A stretch of DNA of 64,000 nt from Arenicellales bacterium. Lineage in GTDB: Bacteria > Pseudomonadota > Gammaproteobacteria > Arenicellales > Poriferihabitantaceae. The notes beneath the pieces were generated by a model, which saw only the letters and a program-made list of their open reading frames with translations, ran no database searches and had not been told where the DNA came from. The DNA lies in assembly GCA_963665165.1 (NCBI GenBank), contig OY761989.1, positions 1,775,734 to 1,839,733 on the forward strand, given 5' to 3'. This document shows, in pieces, positions 17,571 through 37,275 of this stretch. The first letter of the stretch is position 1, and each line of letters starts with the position of its first letter. The position numbers were made by a program, and so were the translations under genes.

Positions 17571-17646
17571 TGGTGGCCAGGGACAGAATCGAACTGCCGA
17601 CACGAGGATTTTCAGTCCACTGCTCTACCGACTGAGCTACCTGGCC
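17571..17646 (-). tRNA. tRNA-Phe (GAA)
   Basis: The reverse complement GGCCAGGTAGCTCAGTCGGTAGAGCAGTGGACTGAAAATCCTCGTGTCGGCAGTTCGATTCTGTCCCTGGCCACCA folds as a cloverleaf. The anticodon loop is CTGAAAA and the CCA end is encoded. Confidence 0.95.
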
Positions 17647-29230: not shown

Positions 29231-31126
29231 CTAGCCGGAACGGGCGGCGGCGGCGCGCCCGGATTTCTTCAGATGAACCAGCAATAGAGAAACGGCAGCC
29301 GGAGTCACTCCTGGAATCCGGGCAGCCTGGCCGATTGTCTGCGGGCGGGTTTCGGTCAATTTCTGTTGAACTTCAGCAGACAGTCCTCTCACCCCGGAGT
29401 AATCCACCGACTGCGGGATCGTCAACCGGTCACTGTTTTTCTGACGCTCGATTTCGATCATCTGGCGCTCGATATAACCACTGTACCGGGCCTGGATCTC
29501 AAGCTGCCGGATGCTGTCCGGATCGTCAAGCGGAGCATCCAGTCCAGCCAGTTCAACCAGGCCGTGGTAATCCGTCTCCGGTCTCCTCAGCAGATCGAGC
29601 AGATTGCTTTCCCGTTGCAATGGCTGGCCGAGAAGCCTTCGAATCCGCGCCGGATCGGTTTTATCCGGATGGATCCAGGTTCTCTCCAATCGCCCTTTTT
29701 CCCTTTCAATCCGGTTCCTTTTCAGGTTGAAGGCAGCGATGCGCTGATCGTCCACCACTCCCAGCCGGAAGCCCTTCTCGGTCAATCGCAGGTCGGCGTT
29801 ATCTTCACGAAGCTGTAGTCGATATTCGGCGCGGGAAGTAAACATCCGGTAAGGCTCGGAGGTGCCGCGAGTCACCAGATCATCAATCATCACCCCGATA
29901 TAGGCCTCGTTTCGAGCCGGGCTCCAGGGTTCCTCCTGCTTGATCTTCAACGCCGCATTGATACCTGCAATCAAACCCTGGCCGGCCGCCTCCTCATAGC
30001 CGGTGGTGCCATTAATCTGTCCGGCAAAGAACAGTCCGCCGACCGATCTGGTTTCCAGGGAGTTGTTCAAGCCGCGTGGGTCGAAAAAATCATATTCAAT
30101 AGCATAGCCGGGGCGGGTGATCAGGGCCCGCTCAAAGCCTTTGATGGTTCTCACGAAGGCATGTTGCACATCGAACGGCAGGCTGGTGGAAATGCCGTTG
30201 GGATATACTTCCGTGGTGTTCAGTCCTTCCGGTTCGACAAAAATCTGGTGGCTGTCCTGGTCGCCGAAGCGCACCACCTTGTCCTCGACCGAGGGACAGT
30301 ATCGCGGCCCCACTCCTTCAATTTCTCCGCCGTAAAGCGGTGATCTGTGCAGGGATTCCCGGATGATTTCGTGGGTCCGGTCATTGGTATGCGTAATGTG
30401 GCAGCAGACCTGCTCAGGATGCTGCTCTGCGCTGCCGAGAAAAGAGAACACGGGTACAGGCCGGTCACCCGGTTGTTTTTCCAGTTCACTATAGTCGATG
30501 GTTTTGCCGTCGATCCGCGGCGGGGTTCCGGTTTTCAGACGGTCAACGCGAAACGGCAACTCCCGCAACCGGTTTGCCAGTGCGATGGACGGAGGGTCGC
30601 CTGCCCGGCCTCCTGTGGAATGGTCCATTCCGACATGGATTTTACCGTTCAGAAAAGTCCCTGCCGTCAAGACCACTACCGGCGCTTCAATCTCGATTCC
30701 CGACCCGGTTCTGATCCCGCTCACCCGGTCTCCCTGCAAGACCAGGTCATCGACGGATTGCTGGAATACGGTCAGGCCAGGCTGGCGCTCGATCGCTCTT
30801 CGAATCGCAATTTTATACAGCGCCCGGTCCGCCTGGGCGCGCGTCGCCTGTACCGCCGGACCTTTCCGGGAATTCAATATGCGAAAATGAATGCCTGATT
30901 GATCGATCGCCCTGGCCATGACGCCGCCGAGAGCGTCAATCTCCTTGACAATATGGCCTTTGCCAATTCCGCCTATCGCCGGATTGCATGACATTTGCCC
31001 GATCGTTTCGATATTGTGGGTAACCAACAGGGTCCGGCAGTTCATCCGGGCAGCCGCCAGCGCCGCCTCCACGCCGGCATGACCGCCTCCGATCACCACT
31101 ATCTCGAATTTTTCCGGATACTTCAT
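29231..31126 (-). CDS. mnmG: tRNA uridine 5-carboxymethylaminomethyl modification enzyme MnmG (GidA)
   Basis: [28 protein letters not shown]...[23 protein letters not shown]. Confidence 0.95.
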
Positions 31127-31158: not shown

Positions 31159-32973
31159 CTATTGATAATAATAATCATACTTCCGCAGAATCTCCCAGGT
31201 AAATCCCCAAGCCTCGTTGAAAGTCAGATTACTGTTGTCGGGAATCACGATCCGGGTATACAGCGACTTGCCCAACCGGTTTTTCAGGTCTTCCAGAATT
31301 GAATCCAGTTGCTCCCGGGGAACCGTTACCAGACCGGGGTCGTCCGGTCGCTTGATGCTGTAGGACAGGGTTCCGGCGATTTTCACCACCCGGACTTCCG
31401 CCACTGTCTTACCCGCCGGACTCCTGGCGGGACGAACCAGCTTGCGATATTGAACGTCCAGACTTTCGTACTCTTCCTGCAGGGTTCGATACTGTTGGGA
31501 AGCAGTATCCGCGCTCGCTTTCAGAGAGGCAATCTCCACTTCCCGTTGCTCGATCAATTCTTTCAGTGACAAAATCTCATCGGTCACTCGGGTGTATCGT
31601 TCCGCTGCGCTTTCATTGATTCTTTCCACTTGCGCCATTTCTTCGGTCAACAATTGATTCTCAAGAGCGGATCGGGACAGCAATCGTCTCAAGTGTTCGA
31701 GTTGCTCCGACAGAGTGTAGATGCGTTCTTCCAATGTGGCTCTTTCGTCAATCAGGGAAGCGACTTCAGCTTCAGACTGCAACTTCAACTCCGCCAGCGC
31801 TTCATCCAGAAATCCGATATTCCGGGTTAAAAGCAGTTCGTTGGCCGTCAGCCTTACCAGTTCGTCCTGTAACCCGCGCTCACTCTCGGTCAGCAAACCA
31901 ATCTGTTCACGCGCCTCCGTCAGGGATTCCGACAGTGAAGTCCGTTCGGCTTCGACGCCTTGCAACGCGGCTTCAAGATCGGACTTTTGCCGGGCCAGTT
32001 CCTCCCGCGCCGCAATCAGTAACCCCACTTCATCCTGCAATTCGCGCTCACTCCCGGTCAGCAAACCAATCTGTTCACGCGCCTCCGTCAGGGATTCCGA
32101 CAGTGAAGTCCGTTCGGCTTCGACGCCTTGCAACGCGGCTTCAAGATCGGACTTTTGCCGGGCCAGTTCCTCCCGCGCCGCAATCAGTAACCCCACTTCA
32201 TCCTGCAATTCGCGCTCACTCCCGGTCAGCAAACCAATCTGTTCACGCGCCTCCGTCAGGGATTCCGACAGTGAAGTCCGTTCGGCTTCGACACCTTGCA
32301 ACGCGGCTTCAAGATCGGACTTTTGCCGGGCCAGTTCCTCCCGCGCCGCAATCAGTAACCCCACTTCATCCTGCAATTCGCGCTCACTCCCGGTCAGCAA
32401 ACCAATCTGTTCGCGCGCCTCCGTCAGGGATTCCGACAGCGAGGCCCGTTCGGCTTCGACACCTTGCAACGCAGCTTCGAGATCGGACTTTTCCCGTATC
32501 AAAGCCACTGTGTCGGCAGTCAGGCCCTCAACCTTGACCGAAGTCTCAAGCTGGGCCTGTTGCAACCGCACATTTGCCTGCTCAAGCTCCCCCCGCGCCA
32601 CGATCACTGACTCCAGGTTCGCCTCCAGTTCAAGCTGGTTCTCGGCCAGCGAGGCAATCCGGTCAAGCGCCTGCGCCAGTGATATCGACAGTGAGGTTCG
32701 TTCGGTTTCCGTGCTTTGCAGAGAGGCTTCCAACTCCGTATTTTTTTGCACCAGATCCTGATTGGCCAGCATCACAGCCTCCCTGGCTGAGATATTGGTC
32801 AGTAACTCGCTGCTCAATCCGAAATTGCGCACCATGATGACGACCAGCGTCATCAGGAATATCATCACGATCACAGTCATGACATCGGTGAACGACGGCC
32901 ATACGCTATCATCCCCGATACCGGCGGCGCCGTGACCGATCCTGAGATCGACAAAGCCGTTGGTTTTCAGCAT
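31159..32973 (-). CDS. Single-TM ExbD/TolR/MotB-like protein with ~460-aa coiled coil and an ExbD-like C-terminal domain
   Basis: The N-terminal SVWPSFTDVMTVIVMIFLMTLVVIMV is a stator-type TM with the conserved Asp context. A long heptad-rich region with 56-aa repeats follows. The C-terminus (LVRPARS...YTRIVIPDNSNLTFNEAWGFTWEIL) is patterned like the ExbD/TolR periplasmic domain. Confidence 0.6.
   Translation of the reverse strand: MLKTNGFVDLRIGHGAAGIGDDSVWPSFTDVMTVIVMIFLMTLVVIMVRNFGLSSELLTNISAREAVMLANQDLVQKNTELEASLQSTETERTSLSISLAQALDRIASLAENQLELEANLESVIVARGELEQANVRLQQAQLETSVKVEGLTADTVALIREKSDLEAALQGVEAERASLSESLTEAREQIGLLTGSERELQDEVGLLIAAREELARQKSDLEAALQGVEAERTSLSESLTEAREQIGLLTGSERELQDEVGLLIAAREELARQKSDLEAALQGVEAERTSLSESLTEAREQIGLLTGSERELQDEVGLLIAAREELARQKSDLEAALQGVEAERTSLSESLTEAREQIGLLTESERGLQDELVRLTANELLLTRNIGFLDEALAELKLQSEAEVASLIDERATLEERIYTLSEQLEHLRRLLSRSALENQLLTEEMAQVERINESAAERYTRVTDEILSLKELIEQREVEIASLKASADTASQQYRTLQEEYESLDVQYRKLVRPARSPAGKTVAEVRVVKIAGTLSYSIKRPDDPGLVTVPREQLDSILEDLKNRLGKSLYTRIVIPDNSNLTFNEAWGFTWEILRKYDYYYQ
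31876..32495. repeat. Tandem repeat, 168-bp unit, ~3.7 copies, inside the coiled-coil gene
   Basis: Units start at 31876, 32044, 32212 and 32380. Units 1-3 differ by single substitutions and unit 4 is more diverged. Confidence 0.9.
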
Positions 32974-33000
32974 TCAGCAGTCCGGGTCCAGGGTTCCAGG

Positions 33001-34017
33001 CTAGGGTTCCAGGCCTCCGGGACGCAACCGGAATCCACGTTGCAACAGGGTCACAACCTCATTCAGATTCTCATTATTCTGGTTGGTCGTGGACATCTGG
33101 ACTTCAATCATTTCCCGAATCAGGGCCAGCATTTCCTGATTGCCCTGGTCTTCCATTGCCCGGGACTCAAGCAATTCCGTCAGTTTCTGTGTCACCCTTT
33201 CCTGAGCCTGTCCCAGTTTTTCAATCAACTCACCGGCGGACTGGATATCCGAGAAATCCAGCGCCTCCTCTTCCTGGCCGCTCTGGAGATGCGGCATCAA
33301 TACGGTTGCGGTCACTTCCTCGACCTTGCTGATCAGGAAAGTCTGGGTATCGGTCAGTTTGATATAAAAATAGCCGAAGAACAAATACGCGAGGATTGCG
33401 GTCAGGGTGGTGGACAATGCGGTGGACATACCGAAAATCATGGTGCCCAATCCTTGTCCGCTTTCCTGGTCGCCACCCGGAAGAATATTGATCTGCCCGC
33501 TGCTCTGCAAAATATCAGAGGCTCCCAGCAGCGAAATCGACAGGGAGACGATCGTTCCGAACACGCCGGTCAGGATCAGCACATTGTGGACGAATTTCAA
33601 AAAACTGTTACGACTGGATTCAGAAGCCAGCAAGGTGGCGGCCAGGGCATTCTGATTGATGTCCTTGCGCCGAAGGCTCAGTGACTGAAGGGTCAGAAAC
33701 CGTTCAGAGATCATCATCTTGCGGGGAATTCCAATCAATGGTTCACTGTCTGAACCGAGGTTGGACTGCAACCGGTTGATCGCCTGCTCCTGGACCCGAT
33801 ACTCCATAAATCGTTTGATCAGTTCAAACATGCCGCAAACAAACAGAAGCAGGATACCTCCGTTGATCAGCCAGCCCACCGCGTTGACCTGGTTATGGAA
33901 ATAAATCTGTGTGATGAGGTCCCGCTGCCAAACCCCCGCGATCACCAGAATTCCCAGAACCAGCAATATTTGCAACAGAATACTTCGAGTGTAATTATGT
34001 GGAGTAGAGTCAATCAT
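33001..34017 (-). CDS. MotA/TolQ/ExbB-family proton-channel-like protein with a helical acidic C-terminal tail
   Basis: Four predicted TMs. GVFGTIVSLSISLLG and GLGTMIFGMSTALSTTLTAILAYLFFGYF resemble the conserved channel helices of MotA/ExbB/TolQ. An acidic helical tail of about 110 aa follows. Confidence 0.7.
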   Translation of the reverse strand: MIDSTPHNYTRSILLQILLVLGILVIAGVWQRDLITQIYFHNQVNAVGWLINGGILLLFVCGMFELIKRFMEYRVQEQAINRLQSNLGSDSEPLIGIPRKMMISERFLTLQSLSLRRKDINQNALAATLLASESSRNSFLKFVHNVLILTGVFGTIVSLSISLLGASDILQSSGQINILPGGDQESGQGLGTMIFGMSTALSTTLTAILAYLFFGYFYIKLTDTQTFLISKVEEVTATVLMPHLQSGQEEEALDFSDIQSAGELIEKLGQAQERVTQKLTELLESRAMEDQGNQEMLALIREMIEVQMSTTNQNNENLNEVVTLLQRGFRLRPGGLEP

Positions 34018-34163
34018 TCTATTTTTCCAGGTTCATTCGTATCGGGTTCGGCTGGTCCATCCGGTGGGCGCCGCCGGCAGAACTGCACGATATTATACCG
34101 GATTATACAAGTAATTATTTTCCGCAGGAAAAACATTCCAGGGGCCGACTGGCAGTACGGATG

Positions 34164-35588
34164 TCATTTACCGATACAGAATGTGCTGAAGATCATTCCG
34201 AGCAGATCGTCACTGCTGATTTCGCCGGTAATCCCGGACAGCGCGCGCTGACAGGAGTTCAAGTCTTCGGCAAGCAATTCGCCGGCACGGAATGTTTTCT
34301 GTTGTTCCAGGCCATGGAGCAGGAACTTCTCAGCCCGGTCCAGTGCATCGATATGTCTTGCCCTGGCGAGAAAATGACTGTCGTCAACATCACGAAACCC
34401 GGCAATGCGCCTGATTTTTTCCTTCAGCATGTCAATACCCTCACCGGTGAGCGCGGACACACATACCTCGTTTTCAGACCCGGAAGCGGGTCGGCCGGTC
34501 AGGTCGATTTTATTCCGTACCAGCAGGACCGGGGCCGGCGTATCCAACTCCTGCAAAAGGGAATTCGTCCGAAGATCCGGGGTATCAGAGTCATCAACCA
34601 CCAGAAGCGCCAGCCCGGCGCGGTTCTGCTGCTGGATCGCCCGGCGCACCCCTTCCGCTTCAATTTCGCTGGCGGCCGGTCTGATTCCTGCGGTATCGAC
34701 AATTTCCACAGGCAGCCCGTCCAGGTCGATGAACTGTCCCAGCACGTCCCGTGTAGTTCCGGGAATGTCGCTGACAATCGCCCGTGGGGCATTGCACAAA
34801 TAATTGAGCAGACTGGATTTTCCCGCATTCGGCAACCCCGTCAACACCACCTTCAGACCCTCCCGCAACAACATTCCCTGTTTACTGGCCTTTTTCAGCG
34901 AAGCGAATAATGACGACAAATGTTCAAGTTGATCGACCACCCTGGCGTCTTCGAGAAAATCTATTTCCTCATCCGGGAAATCAATGGCGGCTTCGACAAA
35001 AATCCGCAGGCGGGTCACCTCCTCCACCAATTCGTTGATCCGCCTCGAAAAGCCGCCCTGAAGCGACTGGACCGCGGATCTGGCCGCAGCCTGTGTGCTG
35101 CTGTCGATCAAATCCGCAATCGCCTCCGCCTGGGTCAAATCCAGCCGCCCGTTCAGGAAGGCGCGTTTGGAGAATTCACCGGGCTGAGCCAGTCTGGCGC
35201 CCGACGCCAGGCAATTCTGCAACAACATCTGCATCACCACGGGGCTGCCGTGAGCCTGGAGTTCGAGTGTCGATTCCCCGGTAAAACTGTGTGGAGCGGG
35301 GAAATACAAGGCAATTCCATTGTCAATGACCAGACCGTCCCGGTCCAGGAAATCGGTATGGCGAGCATGGCGGGGAGCCGGGCACACACCGACCAGCCGA
35401 TTGGCGATACGGACCACATCCGGGCCGGACAGGCGGATAATGCTGATTCCGCCGCGGCCCGGCGGCGTCGCAACAGCGACAATGGTATCGATACTTGCGA
35501 AGCCGGGTGAAATCCCGGATTCCGGTTCAGGGCAGGCTCCTGAATCAGACACTCTGGAATTTTCGGGTAATATAGTATTGCTGTGCAA
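34164..35588 (-). CDS. mnmE: tRNA modification GTPase MnmE (TrmE)
   Basis: DTIVAVATPPGRGGISIIRLSG, the G-domain GLPNAGKSSLLN and DTAGIR, and the C-terminal CIGK. The start is uncertain: ATG 35588 overlaps yidC by 44 nt, and GTG 35552 is an alternative. Either start gives an unusual N-terminal extension of about 20-30 aa. Confidence 0.9.
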   Translation of the reverse strand: MHSNTILPENSRVSDSGACPEPESGISPGFASIDTIVAVATPPGRGGISIIRLSGPDVVRIANRLVGVCPAPRHARHTDFLDRDGLVIDNGIALYFPAPHSFTGESTLELQAHGSPVVMQMLLQNCLASGARLAQPGEFSKRAFLNGRLDLTQAEAIADLIDSSTQAAARSAVQSLQGGFSRRINELVEEVTRLRIFVEAAIDFPDEEIDFLEDARVVDQLEHLSSLFASLKKASKQGMLLREGLKVVLTGLPNAGKSSLLNYLCNAPRAIVSDIPGTTRDVLGQFIDLDGLPVEIVDTAGIRPAASEIEAEGVRRAIQQQNRAGLALLVVDDSDTPDLRTNSLLQELDTPAPVLLVRNKIDLTGRPASGSENEVCVSALTGEGIDMLKEKIRRIAGFRDVDDSHFLARARHIDALDRAEKFLLHGLEQQKTFRAGELLAEDLNSCQRALSGITGEISSDDLLGMIFSTFCIGK

Positions 35589-37275
35589 TGGAAAGCAGGT
35601 TATTGACCACCCAGTAAAGAACCAGGCCAGCCGGGAACCACAGGAAGAAGATGGTAAACACGAAAGGCAGCGCCATCATGATCTTTTTCTGGATCGGATC
35701 GACCGGGGCGGGATTCAGAAAGTGCTGGGCCAGCATCGAAAGTCCCATGATGATCGGCAATACAAAGTACGGGTCCGGTAATGAAAGGTCATTCAGCCAC
35801 CACATGAAATTAGCCTGGCGCAACTCCACACTCTCCAGCAGGGTCCAGTACAATGCGATGAATACCGGAATCTGCACCAGCACGGGCAGACACCCGCCCG
35901 CCGGATTCACTTTTTCCTGCTTGTAGAGTTTCATCATCTCCTGTTGAAACTTCTGCTTGTCCCCGCTGTACCGTTCTTTCAGTGTCGCCATTCTCGGCTG
36001 GAGCTTTTTCATCTTCGCCATCGACTTGTAACTGGCCGCTGAAAGAGGGTAGAAAACCGCCTTGACCAGAACCGTCAGCAGAATAATGGCCCATCCCCAG
36101 TTCAGGGTGACCCCGTATATCTTGCTCAACAACCAGAACAGGGGATTGGCGAGCGGAGTGAACCAGCCGTAGTCCACCGTCAATTTCAATCCGTTCTTGT
36201 TCTGCCGGTCGAGACGCACCTGTTCTTTCGGTCCGACGAACAGCGCGGTCGGCACCACCCCGGTCTGACCGGGATGGACCGTTACCGGCCGGGTTGTCTT
36301 GTAGCCGATGCGGTATTCGGGTTTGGGCGTGTGGTTGTTCACGCCCGAATACAACTGGTAATAATCGGACTCCATCGGCAGCCAGGCGGCCACAAAGTAA
36401 TGCTGCAGCATCGCGACCCACCCATCCGCCGTGGTCATGTTCAATGTTTCGTCCTGAATCTCGCCGTAGTCGATTTTGTCGTACTTGTCTTCCTCGGTAT
36501 AAATCGCCGCCCCGTTGTAGCTGGGTATCCGCCCCAGGAAACCCATTGACCCCGGCTGTTCGATTTCAGTTTGCTTCAACTGTCCGTAAACGAAACCCGT
36601 CCAGGGCTGGTCACTGTTGTTGGCGACCTGGAAATCAACCTCTATCCGGTAGCTGTCTCTCTGGAAACGATAGATTTTTGCATAATCCACTCCATCCGGG
36701 GCGCTCCAGGTCAGCGCCACATCCAGATTCTGGTCGTCGCCCAACTGGTACTCGAACCGGGACGCGGAAAACTCGACATTGTGAGTGGGATACTCCCGAT
36801 CCTGTCCGATCAACCCGCTTTGCGCGACGAACAGGTCCGGATTGTCCCTGTGCATCAGCACGAACGGAACATCGGGCGTATCCACACTGACCGGATGCTT
36901 CAGCAATTCCACCCGGATCAGGTCCCCGCCGCGGGGGTCGATTTGCGCTTTGACCAGGTCTGTCGTGACCTGAATAATCCGGCCATCTTCGCCCCCCGCG
37001 GCTGATGCCGATGCCACACCGACCTCGTCAACCGGGGCGCCCGACCCGGCGCTGTCGATGTTGGCCGTTATCTCGGGGGCGGTAGGCACATCCTCGGTCA
37101 AAGCGGCACGGGGGATATCGACGTCTGATCCTGACCGGACCGCGCCCTGTCCGGCAGTCGGGACGTTTGCGGCCAATCTTTCGCGCTGGAATTCCACCCA
37201 GGATTGCCAGATCATGACCAGCACCAGACCAAGCGCCACGAACAGCATGATTTTTTGAAATGGCATGTTACTCAA
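35545..37275 (-). CDS. yidC: Membrane protein insertase YidC
   Basis: 576 aa: large periplasmic domain followed by WGWAIILLTVLVKAVFYPLS...GCLPVLVQIPVFIALY. Confidence 0.95.
   Translation of the reverse strand: MSNMPFQKIMLFVALGLVLVMIWQSWVEFQRERLAANVPTAGQGAVRSGSDVDIPRAALTEDVPTAPEITANIDSAGSGAPVDEVGVASASAAGGEDGRIIQVTTDLVKAQIDPRGGDLIRVELLKHPVSVDTPDVPFVLMHRDNPDLFVAQSGLIGQDREYPTHNVEFSASRFEYQLGDDQNLDVALTWSAPDGVDYAKIYRFQRDSYRIEVDFQVANNSDQPWTGFVYGQLKQTEIEQPGSMGFLGRIPSYNGAAIYTEEDKYDKIDYGEIQDETLNMTTADGWVAMLQHYFVAAWLPMESDYYQLYSGVNNHTPKPEYRIGYKTTRPVTVHPGQTGVVPTALFVGPKEQVRLDRQNKNGLKLTVDYGWFTPLANPLFWLLSKIYGVTLNWGWAIILLTVLVKAVFYPLSAASYKSMAKMKKLQPRMATLKERYSGDKQKFQQEMMKLYKQEKVNPAGGCLPVLVQIPVFIALYWTLLESVELRQANFMWWLNDLSLPDPYFVLPIIMGLSMLAQHFLNPAPVDPIQKKIMMALPFVFTIFFLWFPAGLVLYWVVNNLLSIAQQYYITRKFQSV

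Follow-up and report, generated by a model that had tools for sequence, protein, structure and literature searches.

Two adjacent genes, here called A and B, lie between mnmE and mnmG on the minus strand of contig OY761989.1 (assembly GCA_963665165.1) of an Arenicellales bacterium. The stretch analysed, hereafter the window, comprises 64,000 nucleotides of that contig (positions 1,775,734 to 1,839,733), and all coordinates below are counted from its first letter. Both open reading frames (ORFs) were found where the initial annotation had placed them, co-directional and with B downstream of A across a gap of 27 base pairs (bp). The pair is genuine and represents a sub-family of the '5:2 motor' superfamily that has not been described, and on balance we favour the reading that the two genes form an operon for a divergent, uncharacterised, ion-driven member of this superfamily, which includes ExbBD, TolQR, MotAB and ZorAB. 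Both subunits are homologous to the superfamily, the genes are strictly paired, and an Asp in the membrane segment of B and polar residues in transmembrane (TM) helices 3 and 4 of A are invariant. The features of the two genes are as follows.

33001-34017, minus strand: gene A, 338 amino acids (aa), four TM helices, ExbB/TolQ/ZorA-like channel subunit
33367-33603, minus strand: A residues 139-217, comprising TM3, a predicted periplasmic loop and TM4, the putative ion-pathway core, with GVFGT and GMSTALSTT...FGYFYIK motifs
33004-33366, minus strand: A residues 218-338, predicted acidic helical cytoplasmic tail with a conserved LLxxGFRL end (helices from AlphaFold)
31159-32973, minus strand: gene B, 604 aa, single-TM axle-like subunit
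32830-32973, minus strand: B residues 1-48, short cytoplasmic N-terminal tail and single TM helix with the invariant Asp30 and WPSFTD (TM prediction and family alignment)
31435-32811, minus strand: B residues ~55-513, coiled-coil stalk, proline-free and heptad-coherent, about 455 residues
31857-32496, minus strand: tandem repeat inside the coil, 168 bp (56 aa, 8 heptads), 3.8 copies, 97% identity (Tandem Repeats Finder)
31162-31434, minus strand: B residues 514-604, C-terminal alpha/beta head, ExbD/TolR-like, with RPARS, LYTxIxIP, NEAW and YDYYYQ motifs

Protein A

Hydropathy analysis of A placed three strongly hydrophobic TM helices at approximately residues 12-30, 46-64 and 146-164. The fourth helix, at approximately residues 191-217, is rich in Ser and Thr and falls under the hydropathy threshold; the AlphaFold model renders it as one long helix. 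The loop formed by residues 67-140 contains 11 Lys/Arg residues and the loop formed by residues 167-190 contains none, a distribution that therefore predicts a MotA-like topology with both the N- and C-termini inside.

Alignment of 30 homologues revealed that the motifs GVFGTIVSLSISLLG and GMSTALSTT...FGYFYIKL are mostly invariant. The strictly invariant positions in TM3 and TM4 are G151, F153, G154, T155, G196, M197, S198, T199, A200, L201, S202, T203 and T204. By sequence comparison, the G-V-F-G-T and G-M-S-T-A-L-S-T-T motifs correspond to GLFGT and PGIAEAL.ATA of TolQ/ExbB. The C-terminal tail that follows TM4 is 121 aa long, contains 21 Asp/Glu versus 10 Lys/Arg residues, and has invariant residues L325, G328, F329 and R330 at its tip. 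Two other members of the A family, P0269 (669 aa) and P0355 (526 aa), end in a long C-terminal tail, 220-440 aa of repetitive helix, that recalls the tail of ZorA.

The Pfam MotA_ExbB profile, PF01618, weakly matched 29 of the 30 A homologues, with a best E-value of 3.8e-6. When an AlphaFold model of A built from the family alignment (predicted local distance difference test, pLDDT, of 68) was compared with the PDB using Foldseek, the top 50 hits were all ExbB, TolQ or ZorA chains, with a probability of ~1 and target-normalised template-modelling scores (TM-scores) of 0.42-0.60. Together, the family-wide profile matches and the modelled structure support the assignment of a MotA/ExbB/TolQ-type fold to A. 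The initial annotation had read A as a 4-TM protein with MotA/TolQ/ExbB-type signatures followed by an acidic helical tail of about 110 aa; the four helices, the quoted motifs and the structural matches agree with this description, as does the slightly longer tail, which is acidic and helical in the model.

Other searches delimit the family. Alignment of the A profile with E. coli TolQ using hhalign did not reach significance; the best local alignment pairs NSFLKFVHNVLILTGVFGTIVSLSIS with TolQ, on equivalent elements. None of the 30 members matched the NCBIfam ExbB, TolQ or MotA models. The ZorA2 models of PADLOC were weakly matched by three of the 30, and A of the window matched no PADLOC ZorA model. 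A search of PDB sequences with the A-family profile returned only de novo helical designs, picked up through the acidic tail, and was set aside as uninformative. Against 1.84 billion representative proteins the A profile retrieved 592 clusters at E<=1e-3, of which 116 were at E<=1e-30. Because the profile finds just 592 clusters, we consider the A family to be small and well separated from the mainstream MotA/ExbB/TolQ families.

Protein B: membrane segment and head

The single TM helix of B spans residues 30-48 and carries the SVWPSFTDVMTVIVMIF motif, and residues W25, P26, S27, F28, T29 and D30 are invariant among B homologues. A profile of the N-terminal 85 residues searched against the PDB identified the ZorB chains 8vvn_B (1.2e-5), 8vvi_A (3.4e-3) and 8qyd_F (0.042) and, weakly, ExbD, with the Asp aligned. 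The PADLOC ZorB models match residues 21-78 of B (E 7e-5 to 5e-3) and nothing beyond the N-terminus, while the NCBIfam model PRK09039 ('peptidoglycan-binding protein') matches residues 24-187. The proposal that B has one TM segment with a stator-type Asp context is borne out by the invariance of Asp30 and by a motif that is closest to those of ZorB and MotB.

An AlphaFold model of the last 135 residues of B (pLDDT 90.8) shows a helix followed by a beta-beta-beta-alpha-beta-alpha arrangement. The best geometric match of this head in Foldseek was E. coli TolR (5by4), with a probability of 0.94, a TM-score of 0.57 and a root-mean-square deviation (rmsd) of 2.9 Å over 91 columns. The top Foldseek E-values went to human immunodeficiency virus (HIV) integrase cores, which were rejected on their TM-score of ~0.25 and rmsd of >6 Å. 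A large homology search with the head-domain profile returned just six short fragments.

In ten diverse members of the family we excised the coil in silico, joining the B N-terminus through the TM helix directly to the head, and scanned the constructs against Pfam. Nine of the ten matched PF02472 (ExbD/TolR) colinearly, from profile position 12 to positions ~57-114 of 128, and in eight of these nine the matched stretch spans both the TM helix and the head. The best E-values were 8e-6, 4.5e-5 and 8.4e-5, the first of these (26.4 bits) belonging to the one construct that exceeded the gathering score of 25.4. Fragments also matched PF02472, namely 5 of 19 from the N-terminus and 2 of 27 from the head, and the native, uncut B of the window did not match it. 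B is best read as an ExbD/TolR-family protein in which an inserted coiled coil separates the TM helix from the periplasmic domain and the TM motif has a MotB/ZorB flavour. The ExbD/TolR-like character that the initial annotation gave to the final part of B is in keeping with the coil-excised matches and with the TolR structural match. Its statement that B contains no OmpA-type peptidoglycan-binding motif also stands: the Pfam search gave no PF00691/OmpA match at E-values up to 10, and the head model is unlike OmpA-like structures.

The remaining hits from Pfam, NCBIfam and PADLOC scans of the two window proteins were either sub-threshold or coiled-coil noise (SMC, Rad50, ERM, JetC) and were discarded. 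The 'chromosome segregation ATPase' label given to B homologues by the Joint Genome Institute (JGI) is likewise a coiled-coil artefact.

The coiled-coil stalk

Between the TM helix and the head, the sequence of B has the properties of a coiled coil. Its a/d heptad score is 0.78, compared with 0.54 +/- 0.03 for shuffled sequences; the heptad register runs unbroken from residue 72 to 398 and from residue 399 to 525, and the last 43 residues of the coil are modelled as a single helix (pLDDT 84-91). Fully extended, at 0.148 nm per residue, the stalk would measure ~68 nm. These values are close to the ~460 aa of heptad-rich coil and the 60-70 nm extended length that had been estimated beforehand. 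From the topology of A, and by analogy, the stalk is predicted to be periplasmic.

Stalk length varies widely. In 64 complete homologues the length of B lies between 285 aa (in L056) and 772 aa (median 468), and that of the coil across the family between 140 and 625 aa, or ~20-92 nm. In L001, a relative whose A is 94% identical to that of the window, a 168-bp unit is present in 2.4 copies. The giant coil of the initial annotation is not conserved in the family: B varies over this range of lengths, and the length in the window derives in part from a recent duplication, 56 aa x 3.8, which that annotation did not mention.

Tandem Repeats Finder detected 26 arrays with a period of at least 30 bp across the B genes, many of them 90-100% identical, with unit lengths and positions that vary between lineages. 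Near-identical, in-frame arrays were noted in L001, L004, L007, L016, L025, L035 and L049, including three 369-bp copies at 100% identity in L007 and 7.2 copies of a 96-bp unit in L035. The period is a multiple of 21 bp in 19 of the 26 arrays, whereas chance would give such a period to 1/7 of in-frame repeats (binomial p = 2e-11); the heptad register is therefore preserved by the duplications. These data support a true coiled coil whose length has been repeatedly reset by independent, recent tandem duplications, and argue against a strut of fixed length. A typical periplasm is roughly 25-30 nm deep. A coil of 47-92 nm is too long to stand perpendicular in a normal periplasm; it must be tilted, be folded back, run along the membrane or act as a flexible tether.

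Distribution and conservation of the gene pair

A scan of one genome per GTDB species yielded 70 loci, and the 8-10 kilobases (kb) on each side of each locus were read. All 70 are from metagenome-assembled genomes, mostly of Arenicellales, Candidatus Poriferihabitaceae or Spongiihabitans (sponge symbionts), with a minority from Zetaproteobacteria, Thiotrichaceae, Granulosicoccaceae and Acidiferrobacterales. B adjoins A on its downstream side in 70/70 loci, with intact homologues of both genes, and in L056 the two overlap by 4 bp. The question of whether the two genes always occur together is answered by this adjacency. With intact, adjacent homologues in all 70 genomes, A and B are real genes and not chance ORFs.

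The order yidC-mnmE-A-B-mnmG is kept in most Arenicellales loci, down to ~45% identity in A, and because it persists to this degree of divergence we regard the mnmE-A-B-mnmG location as ancestral for Arenicellales. The initial annotation had described the pair as 'inserted' at this locus; an ancestral gene order across the Arenicellales leaves no place for a recent insertion. In distant lineages the pair is located elsewhere, for example after uvrB in L056, and nothing but A and B recurs. A functional link to the transfer RNA (tRNA) modification carried out by mnmE/mnmG was rejected, since the synteny is lost outside Arenicellales. Side observations on the synteny concern three loci of Poriferihabitans/Arenicellales (L047, L048 and L049), in which 1.6 to 6.5 kb separate mnmE from A and the synteny is broken upstream, and a locus labelled Parasphingorhabdus sp. 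(L068, JBLHGU010000123.1), in which a gammaproteobacterial-type A-B-mnmG arrangement lies in an alphaproteobacterial bin. The latter is probably a binning error rather than a horizontal transfer.

A recurrent third gene next to the pair, which the initial annotation had proposed to look for, was absent from all 70 loci, which span several orders and include those outside Arenicellales. In L022 and L064, mutually unrelated genes have been inserted between B and mnmG. Searches by tblastn with E. coli queries found no homologues of TolQ, TolR, ExbB or ExbD in the window or in the 70 loci, and TonB/TolA-like neighbours were absent from both as well. No copy of the pair was present in plasmid and phage collections.

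Flanking genes and expression signals

The flanks of the pair in the window were assigned by NCBIfam models, which verified its position between mnmE and mnmG:

29231-31126, minus strand: mnmG, downstream flank, starting 32 bp past B (NCBIfam TIGR00136, E 6e-267)
34018-34163, minus strand: mnmE-A spacer, 146 bp, with two TATAAT boxes 4 nucleotides apart (ttgTATAATccggTATAATatcg)
34164-35588, minus strand: mnmE, upstream flank (NCBIfam equivalog NF003661, E 2.3e-127)

Further upstream of mnmE are yidC, yidD and rnpA, also identified by NCBIfam equivalog models. A consensus scan called no full -35/-10 site in the 34018-34163 spacer, and no terminator-like sites were found between A, B and mnmG. 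From its TATAAT boxes, the mnmE-A spacer could possibly hold a separate promoter for A-B(-mnmG). As listed, the mnmE ORF (TTG start, 34164-35588) overlaps the end of yidC (35545-37275) by 44 bp; the true mnmE start probably lies further downstream, because the NCBIfam MnmE match begins only at residue 33.

Ten other large ORFs between ~21.2 and 49.5 kb of the window all encode ordinary metabolic or transport proteins: ppk1, a DAO/GCV_T dehydrogenase, a TRAP transporter DctP subunit, an MFS transporter, a pyridoxal phosphate (PLP)-dependent decarboxylase, gamma-glutamyltranspeptidase, an EamA-family transporter, an RND pump with its adaptor, and an MscS channel. These ORFs and the empty tblastn searches accord with the earlier statement that the window contains no partner genes. 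Elsewhere in the window, the first 8 kb have a guanine-plus-cytosine (GC) content of 0.58-0.63, which falls to 0.48-0.55 between 8 and 16 kb; this is the window minimum and may be a compositional island, and a tRNA gene lies at 17574-17646 on the minus strand.

Proposed mechanism and alternative explanations

In the model that we propose, five A subunits would surround the TM helices of two B subunits (A5B2), and protonation and deprotonation of B Asp30 by way of the Thr/Ser-rich TM3 and TM4 of A would drive relative rotation. On leaving the membrane, the two B chains would form a parallel coiled coil in the periplasm and carry a dimeric TolR-like head, which may bind peptidoglycan or another partner in the envelope. 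B would in this way be a single polypeptide that unites a TolR/ExbD-like axle with a TolA/TonB-like reach. A candidate for an output or regulatory element is the acidic cytoplasmic tail of A, whose GFR tip is conserved. The pair likely serves a chromosomal housekeeping function in the cell envelope and not phage defence, with a putative envelope role for the stalk.

Several observations weigh against an ion-driven 5:2 motor. A of the window scores 10.9 bits against PF01618 (E 0.4), below the gathering cut-off of 22.9, and the coil-excised B of the window matches PF02472 at E 0.24, below threshold and in the TM part only. The structural support for A is moderate, with its pLDDT of 68 and Foldseek E-values of 1e-3 to 1e-1. 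The TolR match of the B head, geometrically the best, has an E-value of 0.2 and ranks under the spurious HIV integrase. The head profile found nothing among PDB sequences, and its hhalign comparison with E. coli TolR was not significant, though a short local alignment fell on equivalent elements. A strut of fixed length across the periplasm, which is roughly 25-30 nm deep, is not compatible with stalks of 20-92 nm. Finally, the stoichiometry, ion flow, rotation, parallel coil and binding partner are parts of the model that we infer. Because A and B of the window fall below the Pfam thresholds, the homology rests on family-level and structural evidence. The profile searches that the initial annotation had called for thus gave matches at the level of the family (29/30, weak, for PF01618; 9/10 coil-excised constructs, one of them above the gathering score, for PF02472) and sub-threshold scores for the window's own proteins.

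The alternative that survives best, though we consider it unlikely, is that the pair is not a self-contained machine but an ordinary paralogue that energises a Ton- or Tol-like system, whose force-transducing partner (a TonB/TolA-like protein, or else an outer-membrane or periplasmic target) is encoded elsewhere in the genome. The ExbD-family homology of B and the ExbB/TolQ fold of A are what such a module would have, ExbBD paralogues are common and sometimes unlinked from tonB, and our reading of each locus covered 8-10 kb per side. However, neither a TonB/TolA-like gene nor any other recurs beside the pair in 70 loci from several orders, and B has a long helical reach of its own, which is missing from ExbD and TolR. 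The A family also stands apart from mainstream ExbB/TolQ, with its 592 clusters among 1.84 billion representatives and matches to the NCBIfam ExbB, TolQ and MotA models in 0/30 members.

Less probable still is a passive structural element, in which B would be a coiled-coil tether or spacer anchored by A in the inner membrane after loss of ion conduction. The extreme tolerance of the coil to changes in length, the lack of partner genes and the weak scores against motor families are all compatible with a tether. Against it, the TM Asp of B and the Thr, Ser and Gly residues of TM3 and TM4 in A are invariant even in the distant members from Zetaproteobacteria and Thiotrichaceae. Such invariance of polar residues in TM helices is hard to explain otherwise, and we therefore favour a conserved ion pathway.

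A Zorya-like anti-phage sensor, in which B would sense envelope damage and the A tail would signal to effectors encoded elsewhere, is suggested by a B TM segment closest to ZorB in the PDB and PADLOC, by ZorA chains among the top structural matches of A (with the longest aligned stretches), by the helical C-terminal tail of A, long in some members, and by the weak ZorA2 matches of 3/30 members, but we judge it highly improbable, as no ZorC, D, E, F, G or other recurrent gene lies beside the pair, its housekeeping position is kept over a whole order and is not a variable defence island, plasmids and phages do not carry it, B lacks the OmpA-type peptidoglycan-binding domain of ZorB, and A of the window matches no ZorA model.

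The ion-driven 5:2 motor thus remains our preferred interpretation. A more specific version of it, which we advance tentatively and with considerable doubt, is a self-contained new class of envelope motor. Its ExbD-like axle would itself serve as drive shaft or tether, a coiled coil of 20-90 nm whose length is tunable and is rapidly reset in each lineage by heptad-preserving tandem duplications; the motor would work with no TonB/TolA-type adaptor and report to the cytoplasm through the GFR-tipped tail of A. If this is true, stalk length might match the dimensions of the envelope or of extracellular layers in sponge symbionts and in sulfur or iron oxidisers.

Significance

The known 5:2 motors (MotAB, ExbBD, TolQR, AglRQS, GldLM, ZorAB) each revealed a distinct way of getting from ion flow to work. 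In the architecture described here, an ExbD/TolR-type axle has a coiled-coil stalk of highly variable length built into it together with an Asp motif of the MotB/ZorB type, and the channel subunit bears a short, ZorA-like tail; this combination is absent from the reviews and the survey that we examined. The pair is vertically inherited at a housekeeping locus across an order of marine, largely uncultured Gammaproteobacteria. If stalk length is functional, the natural series of B proteins from 285 to 772 aa offers a ready test of the reach and stiffness of force transmission. The coil-excision result also indicates that long low-complexity inserts mask true family membership in standard annotation.

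Comparison with known systems

We found no description of the A-B pair in curated families, defence-system models or literature searches, nor does such a family appear in a review of 5:2 motors from 2022. The initial annotation had proposed an undescribed ion-driven machine; no family model, defence model or paper contradicts the first half of that description, while the kind of machine, a member of the 5:2 motor superfamily, is already known. A 2025 survey of MotAB relatives by Puente-Lelievre et al. (PMC12505986) reports many uncharacterised 'generic ion transporters' (GIT) with odd appendages. The A-B pair resembles these as a non-flagellar A/B operon in which A has a small cytoplasmic domain and B lacks the plug-plus-OmpA module, and in its lineage-specific appendages. 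The A-B family is not named in the main text of the survey, and because the term 'coiled' is never used there, we take it that no coiled-coil axle is described.

The pair resembles ExbB-ExbD and TolQ-TolR in several respects. The predicted fold of A matches ExbB and TolQ chains, and A carries the G-[LV]-F-G-T motif that they also have. B contains one TM helix, in which an Asp is conserved, its modelled head follows the same beta-beta-beta-alpha-beta-alpha order as the periplasmic domain of TolR, and after coil excision it gives a colinear match to Pfam ExbD in nine of ten members. The genes are adjacent in both cases, in the order A then B. There are also differences. A has four TM helices, whereas ExbB and TolQ have three, and it bears a 121-aa acidic tail. 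ExbD and TolR are compact proteins of ~140 aa that work with TonB or TolA; B holds a coiled coil of 140-625 aa between TM helix and head, and in the window it is 604 aa long with a coil of ~455 aa. The TM motif of B, WPSFTDxMT, is of the MotB/ZorB type and unlike that of ExbD. Neither tonB, tolA, tolB nor pal lies near A-B, and the NCBIfam ExbB and TolQ models find no match.

ZorAB shares with the pair the best PDB sequence match of the B N-terminus (ZorB), some of the best structural matches of A (ZorA) and a helical C-terminal tail on the channel subunit. The tail of A is short, at ~120 aa, and the long coil is on B, in the periplasm, whereas that of ZorAB is on ZorA, in the cytoplasm. B lacks the OmpA-like peptidoglycan-binding domain of ZorB, and A-B occupies a conserved housekeeping location with no ZorC-G effectors beside it.

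In GldL-GldM and PorL-PorM, a small channel subunit is paired with a dimeric axle whose long rigid shaft crosses the periplasm (PMC9389320). The concept of a channel subunit plus a long-shaft axle is the same as in A-B, and neither A nor B has sequence or Pfam similarity to these proteins. The shaft of GldM is built of globular domains and has a fixed length. A-B, in contrast, has a coiled-coil stalk of variable length, occurs in Proteobacteria and has no genes for type IX secretion or gliding in its vicinity. That the layout recalls both GldLM/PorLM and ZorAB and matches neither had been recognised from the outset, and the absence of Pfam GldLM matches, of ZorA model matches to A of the window and of Zor effectors beside the pair is consistent with it.

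Domain II of TolA and the spacer of TonB are long helical or extended periplasmic elements that let an inner-membrane motor reach the outer envelope. B resembles them in its long helical periplasmic reach. TolA and TonB are third proteins docked on their motors, whereas in A-B the reach is fused to the axle subunit itself.

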